Of a stretch of 64,000 nt of DNA, positions 10,774 to 27,056 are shown piece by piece. Position 1 is the first letter of the stretch, and every line of letters starts with the position of its first letter. This DNA is from Escherichia coli (GTDB lineage Bacteria; Pseudomonadota; Gammaproteobacteria; Enterobacterales; Enterobacteriaceae). Location of the stretch: NCBI RefSeq assembly GCF_024502345.1, contig NZ_JALDNN010000001.1, one strand, 5' to 3'. The translations under genes were made by a program, and so were the position numbers. The notes below the pieces were generated by a model that was not told the origin of the DNA, made no database searches, and saw only the letters and a list, made by a program, of their open reading frames with translations.

Positions 10774-13296
10774 ATGCTACAGATAATTGGTGCGTTAATT
10801 TTACTGGTAATCGGTTTTGTTATTATAAAAGCGTTGTTTAAGGCATCTCTCAATATTCTAGGTGTGATATTAGGATTGGGTGCATTGATTGTTGCAGGCC
10901 CACCTTTATTGGCGGGCTATATTGTAGAGCGCGTAACCTATGCGCTTCACTCACGTTGGCTGCTGGGTGTACCTCTTGCCATAGCAGGAATGGTGATTAG
11001 CTTTATGTGGGGACTTGATGGTAAACATATTGCCTACGAAGCTTATTCATTTGATTCAATGAAGTTTATTTTAACCGCTGCATTTGCCAGTGGCCTGCTT
11101 GCAGTACCTGTACAAACCAAGGCTATTCTACAAAACGGGCTTATACCAGCCGATATCAATGCCAAACTTAAAGAGTATTATTGCTGTTTTTATACATCTT
11201 ACTTTTTGATGGCCTGCTCTGCGGCTACACCGTTTATAGCCTGGCAATATAATATCTCATCTTCACTGATGTGGTGGACAGGATTGCTATACTGGATAGC
11301 AGCCTTACTGACACAGTTCTATGCGGCAAACCAAATTCAGGAACTCAAGAAGTTAACTAATGCCATCAATACAGGGTTAAATGAGCAAAAAGCGATCAAT
11401 AACCAACTTTGGCTGACGGAACTAAAAGAAGGAAGTAACCTCTCAGCAGAATTCGTAGAGACTATCTATCTTAAGTTGGTCTCACAGCATATTTTTCAGG
11501 GCGATACTCGAGAGCAGGATCTGGCTGGTGAAAACTGGCTTTTAAATGATGCCTGGTATGAAAGAAAGATGGCTGAATTTAATGAGCAGTTAAACAGTAA
11601 AATTGTACACTCATCAGATGAGCTAAGAAGCCTTTTTGGTAATAGGCTGAATTTACCCTCTGCTGCGAATGATGATCTCCTGAACCGTTATCTTGATGGT
11701 GGGAACTATTATTCTTTTTCGGATGGTCGAAAATTTGTCTCGTTTCACTATGTCGACGAGCTTTGTACCTGCACTTCATGCGGTTTGAGCGAGATTAAAA
11801 ACGCAAAACACCAGGACGGTTGTGGGAGCCAGGAATGGTATTGCTCTGATATTTGCCGGGAAACGGAAAAACTCTGCATTGAAATTCACAAGCGACCACA
11901 GGCTGAATTTATTTCCAGTGCAGCAACAAACGGTCTGATTCTCATGACGCTCCCGGAGGCCTGGAATACTAACGAAAAAATGTTTGCAGTGGGAGGACAA
12001 GGACATGGTTTTGCAGCCGAACGGGGAAATCATCTTACTGACAAAATCCAACTAAAAGATGCACATATTCTCGGTGATGATAATGCGAAAAATGGTGCAG
12101 ACAGGCTGGTTAACGGTTCAGAGATTCAGACCAAATACTGTGCAACCGCTGCACGTAGCGTCGGTGCTGGTTTTGACGGACAAAACGGTAATTATCGCTA
12201 TTATGACAGTAACGGAACCCCAATGCAGTTAGAGGTTCCGAAAGACCAGTATTCGAAAGCGCTTGAAACGATGGAGAACAAAATTCGCGATGGCAAAGTC
12301 CCCGGCGTTACCGATCCTGCAGAAGCCACAAAACTTGTACGTCAGGGACACCTGACTTATAGCCAGGCACAAAACATTACTAAGTTTGGCACGTTCGAAT
12401 CTATCACTTACGACATTGCGGAAGGATCTATCATCAGCCTCGCAGCTGGAGGTATCAGCTTCGGTCTGACAGCTTCTATTTTCTACCTCAATACCGGCGA
12501 TCGTAAGGCTGCGTTGCAAACGGCAGCAATACAGGCAGGTAAAACATTTACCCGCACACTGACAGTTTATGTGACGGTACAGCAATTACACCGTATCAGT
12601 GCCGTTCAGGGGTTACTTAAAAATATTGATTTTGCCGCTGCCAGCCCGACAGTTCGTAATGCGCTTCAACAGGGAGTCGGAGCTAACAATCTCAACTCCC
12701 TTAACAAGATGATGCGTGGCACACTGGTTACCTCTTTCGCACTGGTCGCCGTGACCACTGGTCCGGATATGATCAAAATGGTGCGAGGTCGTATTTCTGG
12801 GGCACAGTTTATAAAAAATCTGGCAGTTACTTCATCTGGTGTGGCTGGGGGTGCAATTGGTTCTATTGCTGGCGGAATGATGCTTAGTCCATTAGGTCCT
12901 TTCGGTGCTTTAGCAGGACGCGCAGCTGGTGGCTTGTTAGGCGGTATGATTGCCACAGCGATTTCCAAAAAAATAGCGGGTGCACTGGTTGAAGACGACC
13001 GAGTAAAAGTGCTGGCTCTCATCCAGGAACAGGTTACATGGCTTGCAACAAGTTTCATGCTTACAGCACACGAACTTGAAAACCTGAACGCGAATCTGGC
13101 AACAGTAATTGACCAAAAAACCCTGGAGGTTATCTTCGCCGCAAAAGAGCAAGACCGAGCAACGGCCAATATGCTGATTAAACCACTTGTAGTAAGTGTG
13201 GTTAAGCAACGACCGGTCCTGAGCTATGAACAATCGCAAATCTGCGAAATGGTCGATCAGCTTGATACATCGGTTTCATTATCTGCTGTTGCATAA
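10774..13296 (+). CDS. gene C: hypothetical 840-aa polytopic membrane protein with a Cys cluster and C-terminal Gly-zipper region
   Basis: About six predicted TM helices in residues 1-190; Cys cluster CTCTSCGLSEIKNAKHQDGCGSQEWYCSDIC; C-terminal GGAIGSIAGGMMLSPLGPFGALAGRAAGGLLGGMIATAIS; RBS AAGGA upstream. Confidence 0.65.
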   Translation: MLQIIGALILLVIGFVIIKALFKASLNILGVILGLGALIVAGPPLLAGYIVERVTYALHSRWLLGVPLAIAGMVISFMWGLDGKHIAYEAYSFDSMKFILTAAFASGLLAVPVQTKAILQNGLIPADINAKLKEYYCCFYTSYFLMACSAATPFIAWQYNISSSLMWWTGLLYWIAALLTQFYAANQIQELKKLTNAINTGLNEQKAINNQLWLTELKEGSNLSAEFVETIYLKLVSQHIFQGDTREQDLAGENWLLNDAWYERKMAEFNEQLNSKIVHSSDELRSLFGNRLNLPSAANDDLLNRYLDGGNYYSFSDGRKFVSFHYVDELCTCTSCGLSEIKNAKHQDGCGSQEWYCSDICRETEKLCIEIHKRPQAEFISSAATNGLILMTLPEAWNTNEKMFAVGGQGHGFAAERGNHLTDKIQLKDAHILGDDNAKNGADRLVNGSEIQTKYCATAARSVGAGFDGQNGNYRYYDSNGTPMQLEVPKDQYSKALETMENKIRDGKVPGVTDPAEATKLVRQGHLTYSQAQNITKFGTFESITYDIAEGSIISLAAGGISFGLTASIFYLNTGDRKAALQTAAIQAGKTFTRTLTVYVTVQQLHRISAVQGLLKNIDFAAASPTVRNALQQGVGANNLNSLNKMMRGTLVTSFALVAVTTGPDMIKMVRGRISGAQFIKNLAVTSSGVAGGAIGSIAGGMMLSPLGPFGALAGRAAGGLLGGMIATAISKKIAGALVEDDRVKVLALIQEQVTWLATSFMLTAHELENLNANLATVIDQKTLEVIFAAKEQDRATANMLIKPLVVSVVKQRPVLSYEQSQICEMVDQLDTSVSLSAVA

Positions 13297-13460
13297 TGAA
13301 AGGTATAAATTCATTACCATCGTGATATGGTGCTTCAGACGAAGCAAACTTAAATACCATTAACCCCATGATACTATTGTAAAATCCAAAAAAAATAATG
13401 GTAATCATCATAATGAACTGGTTCGAACAGACTGCGGAAGAGTATGGAGAATTAACAAAT

Positions 13461-13481
13461 AAGGGGGCATTTGCCCCCTTC
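13461..13481. terminator. GC-rich hairpin AAGGGGGC-ATTT-GCCCCCTT, probable terminator downstream of the arsC remnant / gene C
   Basis: Perfect 8-bp stem read directly; T-rich flank on the minus strand. Confidence 0.45.
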
Positions 13482-13485
13482 ATCA

Positions 13486-13640
13486 TTATTTCAGTCGTTT
13501 ACCTGCATCATCAACGACTTTCTCGCCGTCTTCCTTAGCAAATGCACCTTTTTGCGCATCCGGAAGAATATCCAGTACCACTTCGGAAGGACGGCACAGA
13601 CGCGTTCCCAATGGTGTCGCCACAATCGGGCGATTAATCA
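13486..13640 (-). pseudogene. arsC: arsC (arsenate reductase) remnant with internal deletion
   Basis: Minus-strand reading gives MSNITI then, after a gap, ...INRPIVVTPLGTRLCRPSEVVLDILPDAQKGAFAKEDGEKVVDDAGKRLK, matching recalled ArsC termini. Confidence 0.7.
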
Positions 13641-13676
13641 GGATCGGATAGTGATGTTGCTCATATCAATATCTCA

Positions 13677-13886
13677 TTACAAAGTGAAAGAGAGACGTAG
13701 CGCCAGCGCGGCCAGCGTTACAAACAGCACAGGCAGAGTCATGATGATCCCGGTGCGGAAATAGTATCCCCAGGTGATGGTCATGTTCTTCTGTGAAAAG
13801 ACATGCAGCCAGAGTAGCGTTGCCAGGCTACCAATAGGTGTAATTTTCGGCCCCAGATCGCAGCCAATCACGTTGGCATAAATCAT
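13677..13886 (-). pseudogene. arsB: arsB (arsenite efflux pump) 3'-terminal fragment
   Basis: ...[65 protein letters not shown] matches the recalled ArsB C-terminus. Confidence 0.7.
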
Positions 13887-16800
13887 CGCCTCTTTGATAA
13901 CGCATCATACTGCCAGCGGAATAACTCTCTTCGTCAATACGGCTCTCGCTGTACGCTTACCCATCTAGAGAGGTTTCAGGTGATTATCGATGTCAGAAGA
14001 CTGAATGATTCAGTCGTTTACTTTGAGATAGATCAGAGGTTTTTCACTACCTGTGTTCATCACATGGCTACGAATAGTAGAATCCAAGCATAAATTAACG
14101 CTTAGAAAAGTTGAGCTCATGAGATTCCACCCTGAAGGGCCTTCCATACCCGATATCCTCTTAGAACGCTGTGATACAGGTCGAGTTGTATTTCTCTGTG
14201 GCGCTGGGGTTTCATTACCTTCAGGGATGCCAAGCTTTGTAGAGCTTACCCAGCATGTAATTGAATACTTTGACCCACCACACGATTCAGAAATCATGGC
14301 AGCATTTCGCCCATGGCTTCACGACCAATCTTCAGCTAATGTCCCTCTCGACCAAATTTTCAACCTCCTACATCTGGAATATGGCAAGGATGAGGTGAAT
14401 GCTTTGGTATCAAAGCGTCTGGGGACTGCAAGAACTGATATAGAGATTGGACGTGAGCATGCCCTGATTAAAAGAATTTCCTCAAATCAGAGTGGTGTCC
14501 CACAGATTGTCACAACGAACTTTGACCGACTGTTCGAGGATAACCAAGCGCAAGATAATCTAACTCGATATGTGCCGCCAGCTTTCCCAAATCTGAATTT
14601 CGGTTCGACAATTGAGGGAATAACATATCTTCACGGCCGCCTGGTCGACGAAAATGCTGTAAACCATCCTTATGTGCTGAGCAGTGCAGACTTTGGAAGA
14701 GCATATCTTTCAGAAGGATGGGCGACCAATTTTATTAAGCTTCTTCTGGAACGATACATCGTTGTTTTGGTCGGTTATCAGGCAGAAGACCCACCAGTTA
14801 AATACCTCCTTCAGGGTCTCAATCATGATGGCCAGTATGATCGTTCCAGACTTTATGCATTTGATCGCGGCCTTGCCGAGGATATCGAAGCCAAATGGCG
14901 TGACAGAGGAGTTACAGCCATAGCCTATTCCGATCATCCAGCTCTTTGGAAGACTTTGGAAGCATGGGCTGAGCGAGTAGATGATCCACGTCGATGGCGA
15001 GCTTCTATTATCGCTAAAAGCCAGCAAGATCCGAAAGTTCTAGCACCGTATGAACGTGGTCAACTTGCCCATATACTTCGCACTACACAAGGTGCGAAAT
15101 TGTTCTCTGAAGCTGTTCCTCTTCCCCATCCAGAGTGGCTTTGTGTGATGGATGCAAATATTCGGTCAGCCAAACAGAAGAAAAGATACTACGAACTTGA
15201 TGACAATGATGCAGAGACCTTCGATCCACAAGAAGCTTATGGGCTTGATGACGATCTGCAAGATATCGCTGATGATGAACGTAAACGTGGAGTGAGTAAC
15301 GATAATCTCCTTGAATGGCGCGACGAAGATGATAACCCGTCAGATTACCATCGCTTGGCTGGATGTTTGGAGACAATGCCGAAACGATTGAGCCATCTCA
15401 TGGTCTGGTTCTGCAAATCTCTTGATAGCCCCGTGATGGCTTGGTGGGCTATCCGAAAAATCAGTATTCATCCTCTACTACTACAAAATATTGAACGCAA
15501 TATTGAGCATTCAACATCAATCCACAAACGCGCTCGTCAACTGTGGGGCTTAATTCTTGAACATCATAAAGATCCCCGCAATCGTCGTTATGACGTCGAT
15601 TGGTACGACTTAAAAGCTCGAATTACAAAACAAGGCTGGACAGCTGGTGTCTTACGAGAATTTCGTAGGGTAATGACACCCCGATTGGAAAAGAAGTTGC
15701 CGTATGGATTGGGTGAAGTCAGACCGCCAAGCGGCTCCTGGGAGGAAATTCAGTTCAGCGAATTTGGCCAATTTGAAGTTGTGTTCACCGAAAGACATGA
15801 TGACGATTTAGACGTACCTGACAATGTATTACTACAAGTATTTAATGCCTTAGAAGCGCAAATAATAACTGCCTCCGGAATGTTAGAGGATATTGATACG
15901 CACTACTTTCCAAGCCCAAGTTGTTATCCAGAACGTGCGGTTGAAGGAGAAGAACATTTCGCGAAAGGTGCGGAGGTATTAACTTGGTTTGTCCAACTTT
16001 TAGACCGAGTTGTTATGAAGTGGCCAGAATTGGCTAAGGCATACGTAACAACTTGGCCAGTTAAGGAGCCATTTTTCTTCCGAAAGCTTAGACTTTATGC
16101 ATTCAGTAAAAAAGGCGTCTTTGAGGCTGACCGTGTTGCCGAAGAGCTTTTGTCTTTGGATCAAAGTGGATTTTGGGACACAAATATTACCCGCGAACTT
16201 CTTTTTCTGCTCACTGATCGTTGGGAAGAATTCTCGCAAGAAAATCAGAATCGAATTATAGAGCATATATTAACCGGCCCGAACCATTTACTTTATTTGT
16301 CTGAGGAAGACATTCCAAAAGAAAGAGAGATATTAGCAGCTAGATACGCTCGTTATCTCGAACTAAACGGCTGTAAAGTAACCACTATTCATCGTGACCA
16401 ACTAACTGCGATGATTAAAAGAATTCCTGACTGGAATGATGGCTGGGCTACATCTGTTGTCATCAATTGGGGTTCACGGACAGGTTGGGTTCGTACAGAC
16501 GAAAAGCCAGATATAATCTTAGATCTTCCAGCAAACGAAATAATCCCAAAAGTAAAAGAGATACTTAAACGAGAGGATGATAGCTTTACTAGTAGGCAAC
16601 CCTTTGTCGGATTGATAAAAGAAAATCCGCGTAAAGCTTTGTCTGCACTCGCTATTGCAGGGAGAGGCGGTGATTACCCTAAGGAATTTTGGTCGCCAAT
16701 GATAAGTGAGTTACCTATAGATCTTAAACCAAGGGTGAGACGAGTATTCCTGAACCGAATTGTGCGATTGCCAGTTACAGCTTTGGTCGAGTTACGACAT

Positions 16801-17333
16801 ACATTAAGTAACTGGCTTGAACAAAATTTAGCTGCGACTCTTGAATTTGATGAGGATCTCGGGTGGGCAGTTTACGATCATGTCATAGCAGGCATACTGA
16901 GTGGTGGCGCCAGTGCAATACGGAGTAGTTTCGGAGAAGTTATCCGGAATGGAGAAGTTGTAATACAGTCTCGCCGCACGTTCAGTCATGCAATCAATGG
17001 TCCTGTCGGTAAATGTACTCAAGCGCTTTTTCAAGCAATGCCAAGTGAAGAGAAAAAAGCTGGTTCGCTTATTCCTTACTCTATTAAGTCTCGTATTGAA
17101 CATCTTTTTACTGCACCAGGAGAAGGAGCGGACCACGCTATAGCTATAACGTCTCGCAATCTAAATTGGCTAATGTTTGTTGATCCTGCATGGGTAAAGG
17201 AATGGCTTATACCCCTTTTGGATTTAAAACATCCTGCAGCAGAACCAGTATGGAATGGTTATCTTCAGTGCAATGCTATGCCTTCAATTGCAGTAGCTGA
17301 ACTTATTAAACCAGCTTTTCTTAACCTTATCCC

Positions 17334-18390
17334 GGCTTTGTTGAATAAATCAGATTTCGGGTAAGTCTCCCCCGTAGCGGGTTGTGTTTTCAGGCAATAC
17401 GCACGCTTTCAGGCATACCTGCTTTCGTCATTTTGTTCAGCGCTCGTACCAGGGCCATAGCCTCTGCAACCTGACCATCGTAGTCACGCAGTGTCAGTGA
17501 ACCCCCGAACAGCTGTTTTACCCGGTACATCGCCGTTTCCGCTATCGAGCGACGGTTGTAATCTGTTGTCCATTTCCACCGCGCATTACTCCCGGTCATT
17601 CGCTGATTAGCCACTGCACGGTTACGGTCTGCATATTCACCGGGCCAGTAACCCGCACCTTTTCGGGGAGGGATAAGCGCGCTGATTTTCTTACGCCGCA
17701 GTTCATCGTGACATAGCCGGGTATCGTAAGCGCCATCGGCGGCGGCTGACCTGATTTTCCGGTGGGTTTGCCGGATTAACCCGGGGAAGGCCTCTGAGTC
17801 CGTAACGTTGTTCAGCGACAGGTCAGCGCAGATGATTTCATGTGTTTTACTGTCAACGGCGAGATGCAGCTTACGCCAGATACGGCGGCGTTCCTGGCCA
17901 TGCTTTTTGACTTTCCACTCGCCTTCACCGAAGACCTTCAGCCCGGTGGAATCAATTACCAGGTGTGCGATTTCACCCCGGGTGGGCGTTTTGAAACTGA
18001 CATTAACCGACTTTGCCCGCCTGCTGACACAGCTGTAATCCGGGCAGCGTAGCGGAACGTTCATCAGAGAAAAAATGGAATCAATAAAGCCCTGCGCAGC
18101 GCGCAGGGTCAGCCTGAATACGCGTTTAATGACCAGCACAGTCGTGATGGCAAGGTCAGAATAGCGCTGAGGTCTGCCTCGTGAAGAAGGTGTTGCTGAC
18201 TCATACCAGGCCTGAATAGCTTCATCATCCAGCCAGAAAGTTATGGAGCCACGGTTGATGAGGGCTTTATTGTAGGTGGGCCAGTTGGTGATTTTGAACT
18301 TTTGCTTTGCCACGGAACGGTCTGCGTTGTCGGGAAGATACGTGATCTGATCCTTCAACTCAGCAAAAGTTCGATTTATTCAACAAAGCC
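17334..18390 (-). mobile_element. IS903-group element copy B (inverted), 9-bp TSD CCTTATCCC
   Basis: Terminal IRs at 17334..17351 and 18373..18390; CCTTATCCC at 17325..17333 and 18391..18399. Confidence 0.92.
17390..18358 (-). CDS. IS903-group transposase (322 aa), identical to copy A
   Basis: Identical translation to 6097..7065. Confidence 0.9.
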   Translation of the reverse strand: MKDQITYLPDNADRSVAKQKFKITNWPTYNKALINRGSITFWLDDEAIQAWYESATPSSRGRPQRYSDLAITTVLVIKRVFRLTLRAAQGFIDSIFSLMNVPLRCPDYSCVSRRAKSVNVSFKTPTRGEIAHLVIDSTGLKVFGEGEWKVKKHGQERRRIWRKLHLAVDSKTHEIICADLSLNNVTDSEAFPGLIRQTHRKIRSAAADGAYDTRLCHDELRRKKISALIPPRKGAGYWPGEYADRNRAVANQRMTGSNARWKWTTDYNRRSIAETAMYRVKQLFGGSLTLRDYDGQVAEAMALVRALNKMTKAGMPESVRIA

Positions 18391-23956: not shown

Positions 23957-25331
23957 TTAGATAACACCCTTATAAGGAACATGTACTCATCTAAAATGCT
24001 GTTACCGGATTATTATACCTAAAACAATGAATGCTGTGTATTATGAAATGTGATATAAGTCAATTAGTTACATATAAAAACCAACTCACATCCAAAAGGA
24101 TAGTATTTCGAGGTTTGTAGCATCATTAAATGTGAACTTATTTATCGCCCCCTCAAGTTAACTAATAAATAAGTTATAATTTACATATACTTCTGGAATT
24201 TAGAAACCTTATATCTAATAGTTGAGTAAGTTAATAATCAACATGAGTGTGATTCATAAAAAAAATAATTATTATTTTCAGCCCCTCCATTATGGAGGAG
24301 CAATAATAGTATAGTTTTCCTGTATTCCTAACGATCCAGTTAGGCTTAGAGAAATCTAATTATGAAGCACTCCTGAGAGCAACCCTTCCAACTTTATCAA
24401 TATAATCCGCATACCACTGCATCATCTCTCTCCTGCCTTCCAAATACAGCGCATGGTTGTACGTCCCGCGAATCGCATTCTTATCGACATGCGCAAGCTG
24501 GGTTTCAATCCATGCGGTATTGAACCCTTCCTCATGCAAAATCGTACTCATCGTGTGGCGGAAACCATGCCCCGTTACCTTCCCCGTGTACCCAATCCGC
24601 TTAAACACCTGATTAATACTCGCTTCGCTCATTGTTTTGCGGGGATCATTCCTCCCAGGAAACACCAGAGGATATTGCCCAGACATCACTTTGAGCTGCT
24701 GTACGATCTCCAGCGCTTGGGTAGAGAGGGGCACCAGGTGAGGCCGTTTCATCTTCATGCGCTCTGCAGGTATTTCCCACACCGCTTTTTCAAGATCAAA
24801 CTCACTCCAGAAAGCACCTCGAAGCTCACCGGTGCGAACCCCCGTAAGGATCAGCAAACGTGCGGCAAGAACAACCAGCGGGCTGCCTGTATAGCCAGAA
24901 AGAGCTTTAAAGAAATCTGGTAACTCCTCAACGGTAAGGAAGGGATAATGCTTCGATTCATGCCCTGACATCGCGCTGGTTAGATCCGCAGCCGGATTGT
25001 ATTCCGCACGACCGGTAACTATGGCGTAGCGAAAGACTTCGCTGCAGCGCTGGCGAACTTTCTTGGCCTTCTCTGTCGCACCACGGCTTTCCATTCGACG
25101 CAGTACATTCAACAGAACAAGAGGCTTAATTTCATTGACTGGCTGCTGACCGATATAGGGAAAAATATCTTTATTTAAAGCTTCGATAATGTCCGATGCA
25201 TACCCTTCTGACCATCTGCTCACCTTCGTACCGTGCCACTCAAGCGCCACAGACTGGAACGTATTATGATCTTACCCAGCAATAGTGGACACGCGGCTAA
25301 GTGAGTAAACTCTCAGTCAGAGGTGACTCAC

Positions 25332-25631
25332 ATGACAAAAACAGTATCAACCAGTAAAAAACCCCGTAAACAGCATTCGCCTGAATTTCGCAGTGAAGCC
25401 CTGAAGCTTGCTGAACGCATCGGTGTTACTGCCGCAGCCCGTGAACTCAGCCTGTATGAATCACAGCTCTACAACTGGCGCAGTAAACAGCAAAATCAGC
25501 AGACGTCTTCTGAACGTGAACTGGAGATGTCTACCGAGATTGCACGTCTCAAACGCCAGCTGGCAGAACGGGATGAAGAGCTGGCTATCCTCCAAAAGGC
25601 CGCGACATACTTCGCGAAGCGCCTGAAATGA
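25332..25631 (+). CDS. insE: IS3 OrfA (InsE)
   Basis: [54 protein letters not shown]... matches recalled IS3 InsE. Confidence 0.9.
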
Positions 25632-26494
25632 AGTATGTCTTTATTGAAAAACATCAGGCTGAGTTCAGCATCAAAGCAATGTGCCGCGTGCTCCGGGTGG
25701 CCCGCAGCGGCTGGTATACGTGGTGTCAGCGGCGGACAAGGATAAGCACGCGTCAGCAGTTCCGCCAACACTGCGACAGCGTTGTCCTCGCGGCTTTTAC
25801 CCGGTCAAAACAGCGTTACGGTGCCCCACGCCTGACGGATGAACTGCGTGCTCAGGGTTACCCCTTTAACGTAAAAACCGTGGCGGCAAGCCTGCGCCGT
25901 CAGGGACTGAGGGCAAAGGCCTCCCGGAAGTTCAGCCCGGTCAGCTACCGCGCACACGGCCTGCCTGTGTCAGAAAATCTGTTGGAGCAGGATTTTTACG
26001 CCAGTGGCCCGAACCAGAAGTGGGCAGGAGACATCACGTACTTACGTACAGATGAAGGCTGGCTGTATCTGGCAGTGGTCATTGACCTGTGGTCACGTGC
26101 CGTTATTGGCTGGTCAATGTCGCCACGCATGACGGCGCAACTGGCCTGCGATGCCCTGCAGATGGCGCTGTGGCGGCGTAAGAGGCCCCGGAACGTTATC
26201 GTTCACACGGACCGTGGAGGCCAGTACTGTTCAGCAGATTATCAGGCGCAACTGAAGCGGCATAATCTGCGTGGAAGTATGAGCGCAAAAGGTTGCTGCT
26301 ACGATAATGCCTGCGTGGAAAGCTTCTTTCATTCGCTGAAAGTGGAATGTATCCATGGAGAACACTTTATCAGCCGGGAAATAATGCGGGCAACGGTATT
26401 TAATTATATCGAATGTGATTACAATCGGTGGCGGCGGCACAGTTGGTGTGGCGGCCTCAGTCCGGAACAATTTGAAAACCAGAACCTCGCTTAG
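25628..26494 (+). CDS. insF: IS3 OrfB (InsF) transposase, DDE domain
   Basis: [32 protein letters not shown]... 288 aa; overlaps orfA in the -1 frame as in IS3-family elements. Confidence 0.9.
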
Positions 26495-26980
26495 GTCTGT
26501 GTCCATATTACGTGGGTAGGATCATTATTGAGCTGCACATCACGAACCAGCTTTTCTTCTTTCTTGGCAAACGATGGATCGATACCCTCGGCCAGCTTTT
26601 TCTTGGCTTCATCGCGTAGTGCCCTCGCTTGAGCAAGGGACACTGCCGGATAAACGCCAAAAGCCATACGCTTCTCTTTTCCATTGAAGCGATATTTCAT
26701 TCGCCAGTATCGAGAACCAGAGGGAACGACTTCAAGATACAAACCAGCACCATCTGCCAGCTTATAGGCTTTCTCTCTGGGTTTAGCTGCATCTACCTGT
26801 CGCGCATTTAGCTTCATTGGGGGCATCTCCCTGGACCGAACACAGAATGCCCCCACTTATGCCCCCAACTGTAACTTGATTCCGGTTGAGTCCAGTTGAT
26901 AACAGGAGATAAAATACGGGCTAGAAACCGCAGTATACGGGCTTTTAGTTGATTTCGGTAGACTTGGGAAGAGTTTGAAA

Positions 26981-27056
26981 TGGTGCCGATAATAGGAGTC
27001 GAACCTACGACCTTCGCATTACGAATGCGCTGCTCTACCAACTGAGCTATATCGGC
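26981..27056 (-). tRNA. thrW: tRNA-Thr (anticodon CGU), thrW
   Basis: Reverse complement GCCGATATAGCTCAGTTGGTAGAGCAGCGCATTCGTAATGCGAAGGTCGTAGGTTCGACTCCTATTATCGGCACCA. Confidence 0.9.

Follow-up and report, generated by a model that had tools for sequence, protein, structure and literature searches.

Between positions 13297 and 13959 of the window (the whole stretch of 64,000 nucleotides that was analysed) lies a recombination or deletion scar which separates two defence-like loci of the E. coli thrW island (Table 1). On its left side the PADLOC candidate system PDC-M09 (genes A and B) is accompanied by a WYL regulator and gene C, and on its right side a Dsr1-like SIR2 protein is encoded. A first-pass annotation had described such a scar, made up of an arsB tail and an internally deleted arsC on the minus strand and lacking arsR and the 5' portion of arsB. 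This description was borne out, and arsD and arsA are missing from the region as well.

Table 1. Features in and around the scar (window coordinates).
Feature	Position	Strand	Remarks
Gene C	10774..13296	+	840 aa, YeeR family; final gene of the WYL-A-B-C block, convergent with arsC
Gene C-arsC intergenic spacer	13297..13485		Bidirectional intrinsic-terminator hairpin within it (13461-13480)
arsC pseudogene (glutaredoxin-dependent arsenate reductase)	13486..13664	-	Codons 1-5 joined out of frame to about codons 89-141
arsB 3' fragment	13677..13903	-	Final 75 codons and stop; N-terminal ~354 codons gone
IS66-family right-end remnant	13901..13959	+	About 7 terminal tnpC codons, stop codon, terminal inverted repeat ...CGCTTAC
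Dsr1 cassette leader	13960..14118	+	Hairpin 13999-14015; only from ~14010-14040 rightwards common to Serratia and Salmonella cassettes
Dsr1-like SIR2 defence gene	14053..17333	+	Right-hand neighbour of the scar; interrupted by an IS903-like insertion (17334-18390)

The arsC and arsB remnants

The arsC pseudogene has kept its stop codon at 13486 and, at 13650-13664, its start codon with codons 1-5. An alignment with the intact 426-bp arsC of E. coli PSJ-29 reveals that 247 bp (nucleotides 15-261 of the CDS) are absent. Positions 13486-13647 match ArsC positions 89-141 of 141 (NF007456, E 2.1e-28), and the two parts meet at a microhomology of 3 bp, ATA, at 13648-13650. A 7-bp repeat which BLAST suggested at this place was rejected, as direct reading gives just the 3 bp. 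Because the frame is shifted after codon 5 and now translates to MSNITIRS followed by a stop, the window does not encode an ArsC in the sense of NF007456, that is an intact 141-aa frame including the N-terminal catalytic region; the ArsC of the sister genome PSJ-29 scores 292.9 bits, above the cut-off of 242. An intact 141-aa arsC is found at the same place in PSJ-29, ET826, Z226-5, Z226-6, 2018-05-2CC, a contig with a Citrobacter koseri-named protein cluster and Enterobacter sp. R1. Five complete E. coli genomes and the C. koseri-named contig represent an intermediate state, in which the same joint between arsB and the IS66 remnant is combined with an intact arsC. As five complete genomes with the same scar keep arsC intact, the 247-bp deletion is strain-specific.

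For arsB, translating 13677-13904 on the minus strand yields 75 codons that match positions 357-428 of the 430 positions of the ArsB profile. The fragment scores ~130 bits (130.6; E 7.9e-38) against NF011980, for which the full-length cut-off is 457, and so falls outside the family as defined by NCBIfam (NF011980/TIGR00935, full-length proteins of ~429 aa above the curated cut-off). Judged by its 96-97% nucleotide identity to intact genes it is nevertheless a fragment of a true arsB. Nucleotide homology to arsB extends to 13903, and position 13886 is merely the first ATG of the residual ORF, which is still open over 69 codons. In sister genomes RefSeq already records the corresponding stretch as arsC with a partial ArsB pseudogene, and the label in related genomes reads 'ArsB/NhaD family transporter, incomplete, missing N-terminus'.

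The IS66 stub

What the earlier annotation did not contain is the fusion of arsB to an IS66-family element, which is new in this analysis. Alignments of 55-67 bp show 85% identity to the right ends of ISEc8 and ISKpn24 (E 9e-10, 28 Gb searched). The final 59 bp, with C-terminal tnpC codons and a terminal inverted repeat of the ISEc8/ISKpn24 type, place the remnant in the IS66 family by its end. A whole element (tnpA-tnpB-tnpC, two ends and an 8-bp target duplication) is not present: unlike in ISEc8 and ISKpn24, the right end alone survives here and tnpA, tnpB and tnpC are absent. Its interior is fused to arsB via a 3-bp microhomology, CGC, at 13901-13903, a joint that direct reading of the sequences shows; the outer end of the remnant points towards Dsr1. 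The IncFIB plasmids pL21-1NR and pRHB16-C02_2 at first seemed to carry the same junction, since BLAST merged arsC, arsB and ISKpn24 matches into one place. In these plasmids a complete ISKpn24 lies downstream of arsC, on the far side of an intact operon, which is a different joint.

Spacer, terminator and repeats

The spacer between gene C and arsC is conserved throughout its length, with 95-100% identity to the Enterobacter sp. R1(2018) contig (L040), and is still recognisable (66-82%) in a more distant copy of the block (L036). Homology to the downstream regions of ars operons begins at 13431-13458. The hairpin within the spacer consists of 8 pairs, 6 of them G-C, with T-runs on both strands, and has a folding energy of -15.5 kcal/mol (z = -4.2). 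This bidirectional terminator, which now would end the gene C transcript, is likely the one piece of the remnant in use.

A 13-bp direct repeat, TTCAGTCGTTTAC (13490-13502 and 14009-14021), could have been a target duplication or a further vestige of arsC. It was finally taken as chance, as the copy at 14009-14021 is part of the Dsr1 leader hairpin and is preserved in part in the Salmonella and Serratia leaders, which have no ars neighbour. An Rfam search of 13100-14200 gave no match above noise, and in a promoter scan promoter-like sites occurred at the frequency expected from shuffled sequence.

Neighbouring genes

Gene C belongs to the YeeR family: the precomputed Pfam assignment PF27347 (YeeR_C) is found on the identical protein and on homologues, whose UniRef names include 'Inner membrane protein YeeR', and gene C shows ~70% nucleotide identity to a gene beside Ag43 in more than 2500 E. 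coli genomes. It had been proposed for comparison with yhiS. No similarity to the K-12 ars-yhiS region was found (tblastn best E 6.8), and the best match of yhiS in the window (E 0.19) is located elsewhere. For annotation, gene C should hence be treated as a YeeR-family gene outside the ars/yhiS neighbourhood.

PDC-M09 is recognised by A and B standing side by side (PADLOC; B over its full length with E 1.7e-213, the 3' part of A with E 5.4e-64). On the other side PADLOC profiles match the SIR2 N-terminus of Dsr1 (E 6.5e-68). With NCBIfam NF041818 (cut-off 1400 bits) the intact PSJ-29 protein scores 378.6 bits, and therefore the gene is best called Dsr1-like. Decay in this strain is general, with IS insertions in PDC-M09A (split by two IS elements in the window), Dsr1 and the integrase.

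Relationship to mobile ars operons

The ars part is matched at 80-97% nucleotide identity in 4345 of the 5426 complete E. coli genomes, which is far beyond chance. Overall the remnant is 92.2% identical to an island-borne arsRDABC but 86.9% to the K-12 arsRBC, and for the arsB tail the values are 96-97% and 90%. Past the arsC stop, homology continues for 28-55 bp into the terminator in mobile operons and ends at the stop codon in K-12. Nucleotide identity thus favours arsRDABC operons as the relatives of the remnant. The window has lost the interval from arsR to arsB; L040 has arsD and an arsA remnant there, and an island variant which carries dnd retains an arsA fragment.

The R773-type mobile arsRDABC operons, which Enterobacteriaceae carry on IncF/IncH plasmids and integrative islands, have 89-97% nucleotide identity to arsC and the arsB tail, with the same 12-bp gap between arsB and arsC and the same terminator behind arsC. 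The difference is that only 179 bp of frameshifted arsC and 227 bp of arsB remain here, without arsR, arsD and arsA and without function. The chromosomal K-12 arsRBC beside yhiS shares homologous arsB/arsC coding sequence (87% overall, 90% in the arsB tail); it differs by this lower identity, by the lack of homology beyond the arsC stop, and by its place, as the remnant lies in the thrW island and no yhiS relative is present in the window. In each of the five related E. coli genomes one or more additional ars matches lie at other places in the chromosome, which is consistent with a native ars locus left untouched.

Related islands

The closest relative with a nearly complete operon is L040, with 98.06% nucleotide identity over 13.4 kb of island backbone. 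After its WYL-A-B-C block, which is 99% identical in protein, come arsC, an intact arsB, an arsA remnant, arsD and arsR. The E. coli island is collinear with it exactly up to the arsB break (window position 13903). The contig ends 51 bp past arsR, and a complete IS66 element lying between ars and Dsr1 was seen in no genome. The block has a further, more distant copy (L035/L036) in a non-island context, with arsC at the same 190-bp spacing.

In the dnd-carrying variant (L025-L032) arsC amino acids 50-141 are fused to arsA amino acids 193-293 beside the dnd cluster. The L025-type arsC allele is just 81-85% identical, while gene C is 99.6% identical, and the variant is best read as an independent erosion of the ars cargo. 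On a 20.8-kb metagenome contig (L043, Ga0268256_1000885), a unit of 77 bp of arsB, 59 bp of IS66 and Dsr1, 96-98% identical to ours, adjoins genes for an aldehyde dehydrogenase, a LysR regulator and flagellin, an unrelated chromosomal context. The Dsr1 cassettes of Serratia and Salmonella have neither an ars nor an IS66 flank and carry an IS3-family stub instead.

Among CP4-like tRNA islands, the glyU island of NZ_OZ197100 likewise has its cargo hotspot between the integrase and the AlpA/YfjJ genes, with integrase, cargo, YagK/YfjJ, AlpA, GTPase and DUF932 in that order, and an ars operon flanked by defence systems at the equivalent position and in the same orientation. The backbones are only 66-73% identical, however, and the glyU island has an intact arsRDABC in place of the stub. 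In the literature nothing specific to this thrW island was found.

Origin of the scar

We consider it probable that the stretch is the non-functional remnant of a mobile arsRDABC operon that this family of tRNA-integrating islands formerly carried. The original operon would have been located immediately downstream of the WYL-A-B-C block and convergent with it; the comparison shows an ancestral state like that of Enterobacter sp. R1 (gene C, arsC, arsB, arsA, arsD, arsR). An illegitimate deletion mediated by the CGC microhomology may then have brought arsB, at about codon 355, up against the final 59 bp of the right end of an IS66-family element that stood immediately ahead of the Dsr1 cassette, removing the 5' part of arsB, arsA, arsD, arsR and nearly the whole IS; the joint is read from the sequence, the order of events is proposed. 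Alternatively, an incoming Dsr1 cassette which already bore the joint may have recombined with the resident operon inside the ars homology. In this strain alone, a second microhomology deletion (ATA) took out 247 bp of arsC, among them the region for the catalytic Cys12, and put the rest out of frame. What is left cannot confer arsenic resistance.

The first-pass annotation had suggested another source, which can be read as a joint move of the ars fragment and WYL-A-B-C into the thrW island from the chromosomal arsRBC/yhiS spot, with gene C as a yhiS relative. K-12 does have arsR-arsB-arsC followed by an IS5-split yhiS, as stated there, and the idea of an ars-adjacent origin of the block holds in so far as the block adjoins ars genes in L040 and L035/L036. 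The nearly complete operon in L040 is, however, of the arsRDABC type, with arsD and an arsA remnant, and stands in an island backbone and not at the chromosomal ars locus. No E. coli genome carries the block at that locus; gene B is present at ≥99% in just 6 of 5426 genomes, and every one inspected sits at an island. With gene C unlike yhiS, and a remnant that is 5-7 percentage points nearer to arsRDABC operons and shares their terminator, derivation from a K-12-type locus is largely refuted already and hardly credible. Retention of the stretch for a function, be it a truncated ArsC/ArsB peptide, a small RNA or a Dsr1 promoter, is very improbable too. The terminator hairpin is strong and conserved and the 69-codon ORF is open, but arsC is frameshifted after codon 5, the searches for RNA families and promoters gave nothing above background, different island variants keep different fragments, and the absence of the deletion from five sister genomes indicates that the sequence is not under uniform constraint.

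More has to be said about a composite scar, in which arsC and gene C would be residents of the island, the arsB tail and IS66 stub would be newcomers attached to the Dsr1 cassette, and a crossover in ars homology would have swapped the right-hand cargo. Here arsC is 97-99% identical to L040 and the arsB tail 92-95%, so that divergence climbs from 2.3% (10 of 426 positions) to 6.6% (15 of 227; Fisher p ~0.01), and other arsRDABC operons resemble the tail more closely than L040 does. In a maximum-chi-square comparison of PSJ-29 with L040 the breakpoint came out at the end of gene C, where it reflects coding versus non-coding constraint. Only the contrast of arsC with the arsB tail bears on recombination. 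It means that a simple deletion in place from an L040-like ancestor is not the whole story. The unit in the unrelated context of L043 also fits such an exchange, as does the dnd variant, whose other arsC allele and arsA fragment abutting dnd, next to a nearly identical gene C, point to a breakpoint in the gene C-arsC spacer. Yet informative sites are few and the p-value is marginal, L043 could equally derive from the island by further truncation, Dsr1 cassettes in Serratia and Salmonella do without ars or IS66 flanks, and a donor with a longer ars arm beside Dsr1 was not found. While recombination among ars alleles has evidently occurred, we regard this as a possible but less probable account of the scar than decay of the resident operon.

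A rather doubtful extension is that ars fragments may act as portable homology arms by which anti-phage cassettes (Dsr1, dnd and others) are swapped from one CP4-like island to another, and even into sites of the core chromosome, the stub of arsB and IS66 being the arm of the Dsr1 cassette. This would explain the different break points inside ars genes among island variants.

Taken alone the stretch is an ordinary pseudogene scar, a dead remnant of little importance, and its value is mainly that of a marker of island cargo exchange. It shows that the thrW island descends from an ars-carrying island common to Enterobacter and, by one protein-cluster name, Citrobacter koseri, that the Dsr1 cassette moves with the IS66 stub attached, and that the island has changed its cargo on the right-hand side of arsC more than once, to Dsr1 in one variant and to dnd in another.

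The arsB/arsC remnant and its two joints

The first-pass annotation had described an arsB tail and an internally deleted arsC on the minus strand, and both are borne out by profile matches and by alignment to PSJ-29, a sister E. coli genome with intact arsC. The fragments are leftovers of an arsRDABC operon that ran convergently to gene C, and at arsB as well as at arsC the joint was made by a microhomology deletion. The remnant lies in the cargo region of a genomic island in an E. coli chromosome segment, left of thrW, which has proA and proB on its right. At 99.5-99.9% identity this island is present in five complete E. coli genomes (ET826, PSJ-29, Z226-5, Z226-6 and 2018-05-2CC), all of which carry an intact 426-bp arsC together with the arsB fragment of the window, labelled in RefSeq as an incomplete ArsB/NhaD pseudogene. 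Compared with PSJ-29, 247 bp of arsC (nt 15-261) are gone from the window; the joint is a 3-bp ATA microhomology and the frame across it reads MSNITIRS*. This deletion is private to the strain, the deleted form being absent from all 5426 complete genomes searched. The remnant has no arsenic function and is a real but ordinary pseudogene scar.

Features of the thrW island around the ars remnant (window coordinates)
Feature	Position	Strand	Remarks
IS5	2432-3626
WYL regulator	5105-5983		left of remnant
IS903-like element	6065-7121		in PDC-M09A; 9-bp duplication
IS3-family element	7488-8849		in PDC-M09A
PDC-M09 protein A, 3' part	8702-9292		PADLOC candidate, IS-disrupted
PDC-M09 protein B	9292-10737		PADLOC candidate
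Gene C	10774-13296
Bidirectional hairpin	13461-13480
arsC, 3' part	13486-13647	minus	ArsC residues 89-141 (profile E 2e-28)
arsC deletion joint	13648-13650
arsC, 5' part	13650-13664	minus	start codon and five codons
arsB tail	13677-13904	minus	C-terminal 75 residues; profile positions 357-428 of 430, E 8e-38
arsB/IS66 joint	13901-13903
IS66 stub	13901-13959		abuts arsB break on the right
Dsr1-like SIR2 protein	start 14053 or 14119		right of remnant; GTG 14053 (1291 aa) in RefSeq PSJ-29, ATG 14119 (1269 aa) in most other records
IS903-like element (second)	17334-18390		in Dsr1
IS3-like element	25268-26523		in integrase
tRNA-Thr(CGT) thrW	26981-27056	minus

The IS66 stub, missed in the earlier reading, matches the last 55-67 bp of ISEc8 and ISKpn24 (IS66 family) at 85% identity. 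From tnpC it retains the final codons and the stop codon, followed by the terminal repeat (ending ...CGCTTAC); its outer end points toward Dsr1 and its interior is joined to arsB. With the break marked by a slash, the arsB sequence is ...TTTGATAACGC/CTGTTG..., the IS sequence ...CCGTGGCGC/ATAGCACTGCC... and the window sequence ...TTTGATAACGC/ATCATACTGCC..., a CGC microhomology deletion joint and not one made by transposition.

A 13-bp direct repeat, TTCAGTCGTTTAC, flanks the scar (13490-13502, over the last arsC codons, and 14009-14021, within the Dsr1 leader hairpin). Since Dsr1 leaders that lack an ars neighbour partly preserve the second copy, the repeat is probably due to chance. On the IncFIB plasmids pL21-1NR and pRHB16-C02_2 a complete ISKpn24 (4680-7055 of loci L008/L009) lies about 120 bp downstream of arsC in an intact arsRDABC operon; IS66-family elements therefore adjoin ars operons elsewhere too, although the plasmid element and the window stub stand on opposite sides of the operon.

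Origin of the ars DNA

Scanning one genome per species identified a near-ancestral state (L040) in Enterobacter sp. R1(2018), contig NZ_RCAA01000015.1, with 98.06% nt identity to PSJ-29 across 13.4 kb of island backbone. Gene C (99% aa) is followed by arsC (141 aa), an intact arsB (429 aa, one HSP), an arsA cut to residues 1-24 and 485-581, arsD and arsR, and then the contig ends. The E. coli island remains collinear with L040 precisely up to the arsB break at window 13903 and no further. Even in this 'intact' operon arsA residues 25-484 are lost (L040 14496-14855), so operon decay began before the E. coli lineage lost arsB.

The proposal that the WYL-A-B-C block came from an ars-adjacent site, and would be found beside an ars operon, thus holds in a different sense: the block does adjoin a nearly intact operon in L040, but the operon there is an arsRDABC carried by the island, not the arsRBC of the chromosome, and the suggested link to K-12 arsRBC and yhiS is wrong. 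Compared with the 693-bp PSJ-29 version, the arsRDABC operon of a glyU island (NZ_OZ197100) is 92.2% identical at the nt level (arsB tail 96%), a second arsRDABC operon (L005) 89.0% (97%) and K-12 arsRBC 86.9% (90%). Homology to the mobile operons runs 28-55 bp beyond the arsC stop, terminator hairpin included; that to K-12 ends at the arsC stop codon. The glyU island shares the architecture of the thrW island (integrase, cargo, YagK/YfjJ, AlpA, GTPase, DUF932, antirestriction, RadC, CbtA/CbeA), and its ars operon lies in the cargo, in the same orientation as the remnant and adjoining a defence system. Because its backbone is only 66-73% identical to that of the thrW island, the ars DNA is exchanged cargo rather than vertically shared backbone.

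Formation of the arsB joint

The joint could be the product of an in-situ deletion that reached from arsB into an IS66 element lying upstream of Dsr1. Alternatively, a Dsr1 cassette on which the arsB'/IS66' joint was already present could have been imported by crossover within ars homology. Relative to L040 there are 10 differences in the 426 sites of arsC and 15 in the 227 of the arsB tail (Fisher p about 0.01), and other arsRDABC operons match the tail at 96-99% identity. On thin evidence, this hints at different histories of the arsB tail and the arsC part. In a metagenome contig (L043) 77 bp of arsB tail stand after genes for an aldehyde dehydrogenase, a LysR regulator and a flagellin; next come the same 59-bp IS66 stub, the same leader, Dsr1 and the genes beyond it, all with 96-98% identity to the island. 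Given this other context, the joint is not limited to the thrW island and moves with Dsr1; L043 could equally well have descended from the island by further truncation. The four-gene Dsr1 cassette of Serratia marcescens and Salmonella shares sequence with the window only to the right of about 14010-14040; upstream it bears an IS3-family stub in place of arsB'/IS66'.

In a variant of the island with the same backbone (L025-L032), gene C shows 99.6% nt identity; the scar (e.g. L025 11717-12295) fuses arsC residues 50-141 to arsA residues 193-293, and dndB-E follow. A dnd (DNA phosphorothioation) cluster stands in place of Dsr1. Identity of the arsC allele reaches only 81-85% with that of the window and 87-94% with that of contig L036, and it drops from 95% to 89% across the C-arsC spacer. 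Island descendants therefore break inside different ars genes, and ars alleles have been exchanged.

Gene C and the WYL-A-B-C block

The suspected relationship of gene C to yhiS found no support, as tblastn against K-12 yhiS gave no similarity (best E 6.8). Gene C carries Pfam YeeR_C, its homologues bear the name YeeR, and a relative of about 70% nt identity adjoins Ag43 in more than 2500 E. coli genomes. Gene C also gives weak matches to PDC-M09B profiles (E 6e-5 and 6e-4) and may be a distant paralogue of B; not every version of the WYL-A-B block includes it. The A-B pair, with or without WYL, occurs without C and ars in Citrobacter freundii, Enterobacter soli, Klebsiella and Aeromonas, and in similar islands it often directly follows YagK/YfjJ. 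In an Enterobacter MAG the four-gene form that includes C adjoins an SNF2/PLD cluster, not ars; in contigs L035/L036 it lies in a LysR/EthD context, with arsC next at the same 190-bp spacing and an alignable C-arsC spacer. The gene C homologue of Serratia sp. PL17 (NZ_JAFIBY010000002.1) is in two pieces, residues 1-526 and 523-832 (L041 10165-11574, L042 10001-10930), which are separated by about 34 kb of the same contig; a large insertion within the gene is implied.

Terminator and decay of the island

The hairpin between gene C and arsC is strong (-15.5 kcal/mol, z = -4.2) and probably still terminates the gene C transcript; an Rfam search of the remnant region matched no family. Relative to PSJ-29 the island of this strain has gained five IS insertions. 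With PDC-M09A, Dsr1 and the integrase all interrupted by such elements, the two defence loci and the integrase are probably inactive in this strain, in which the island is in general decay.
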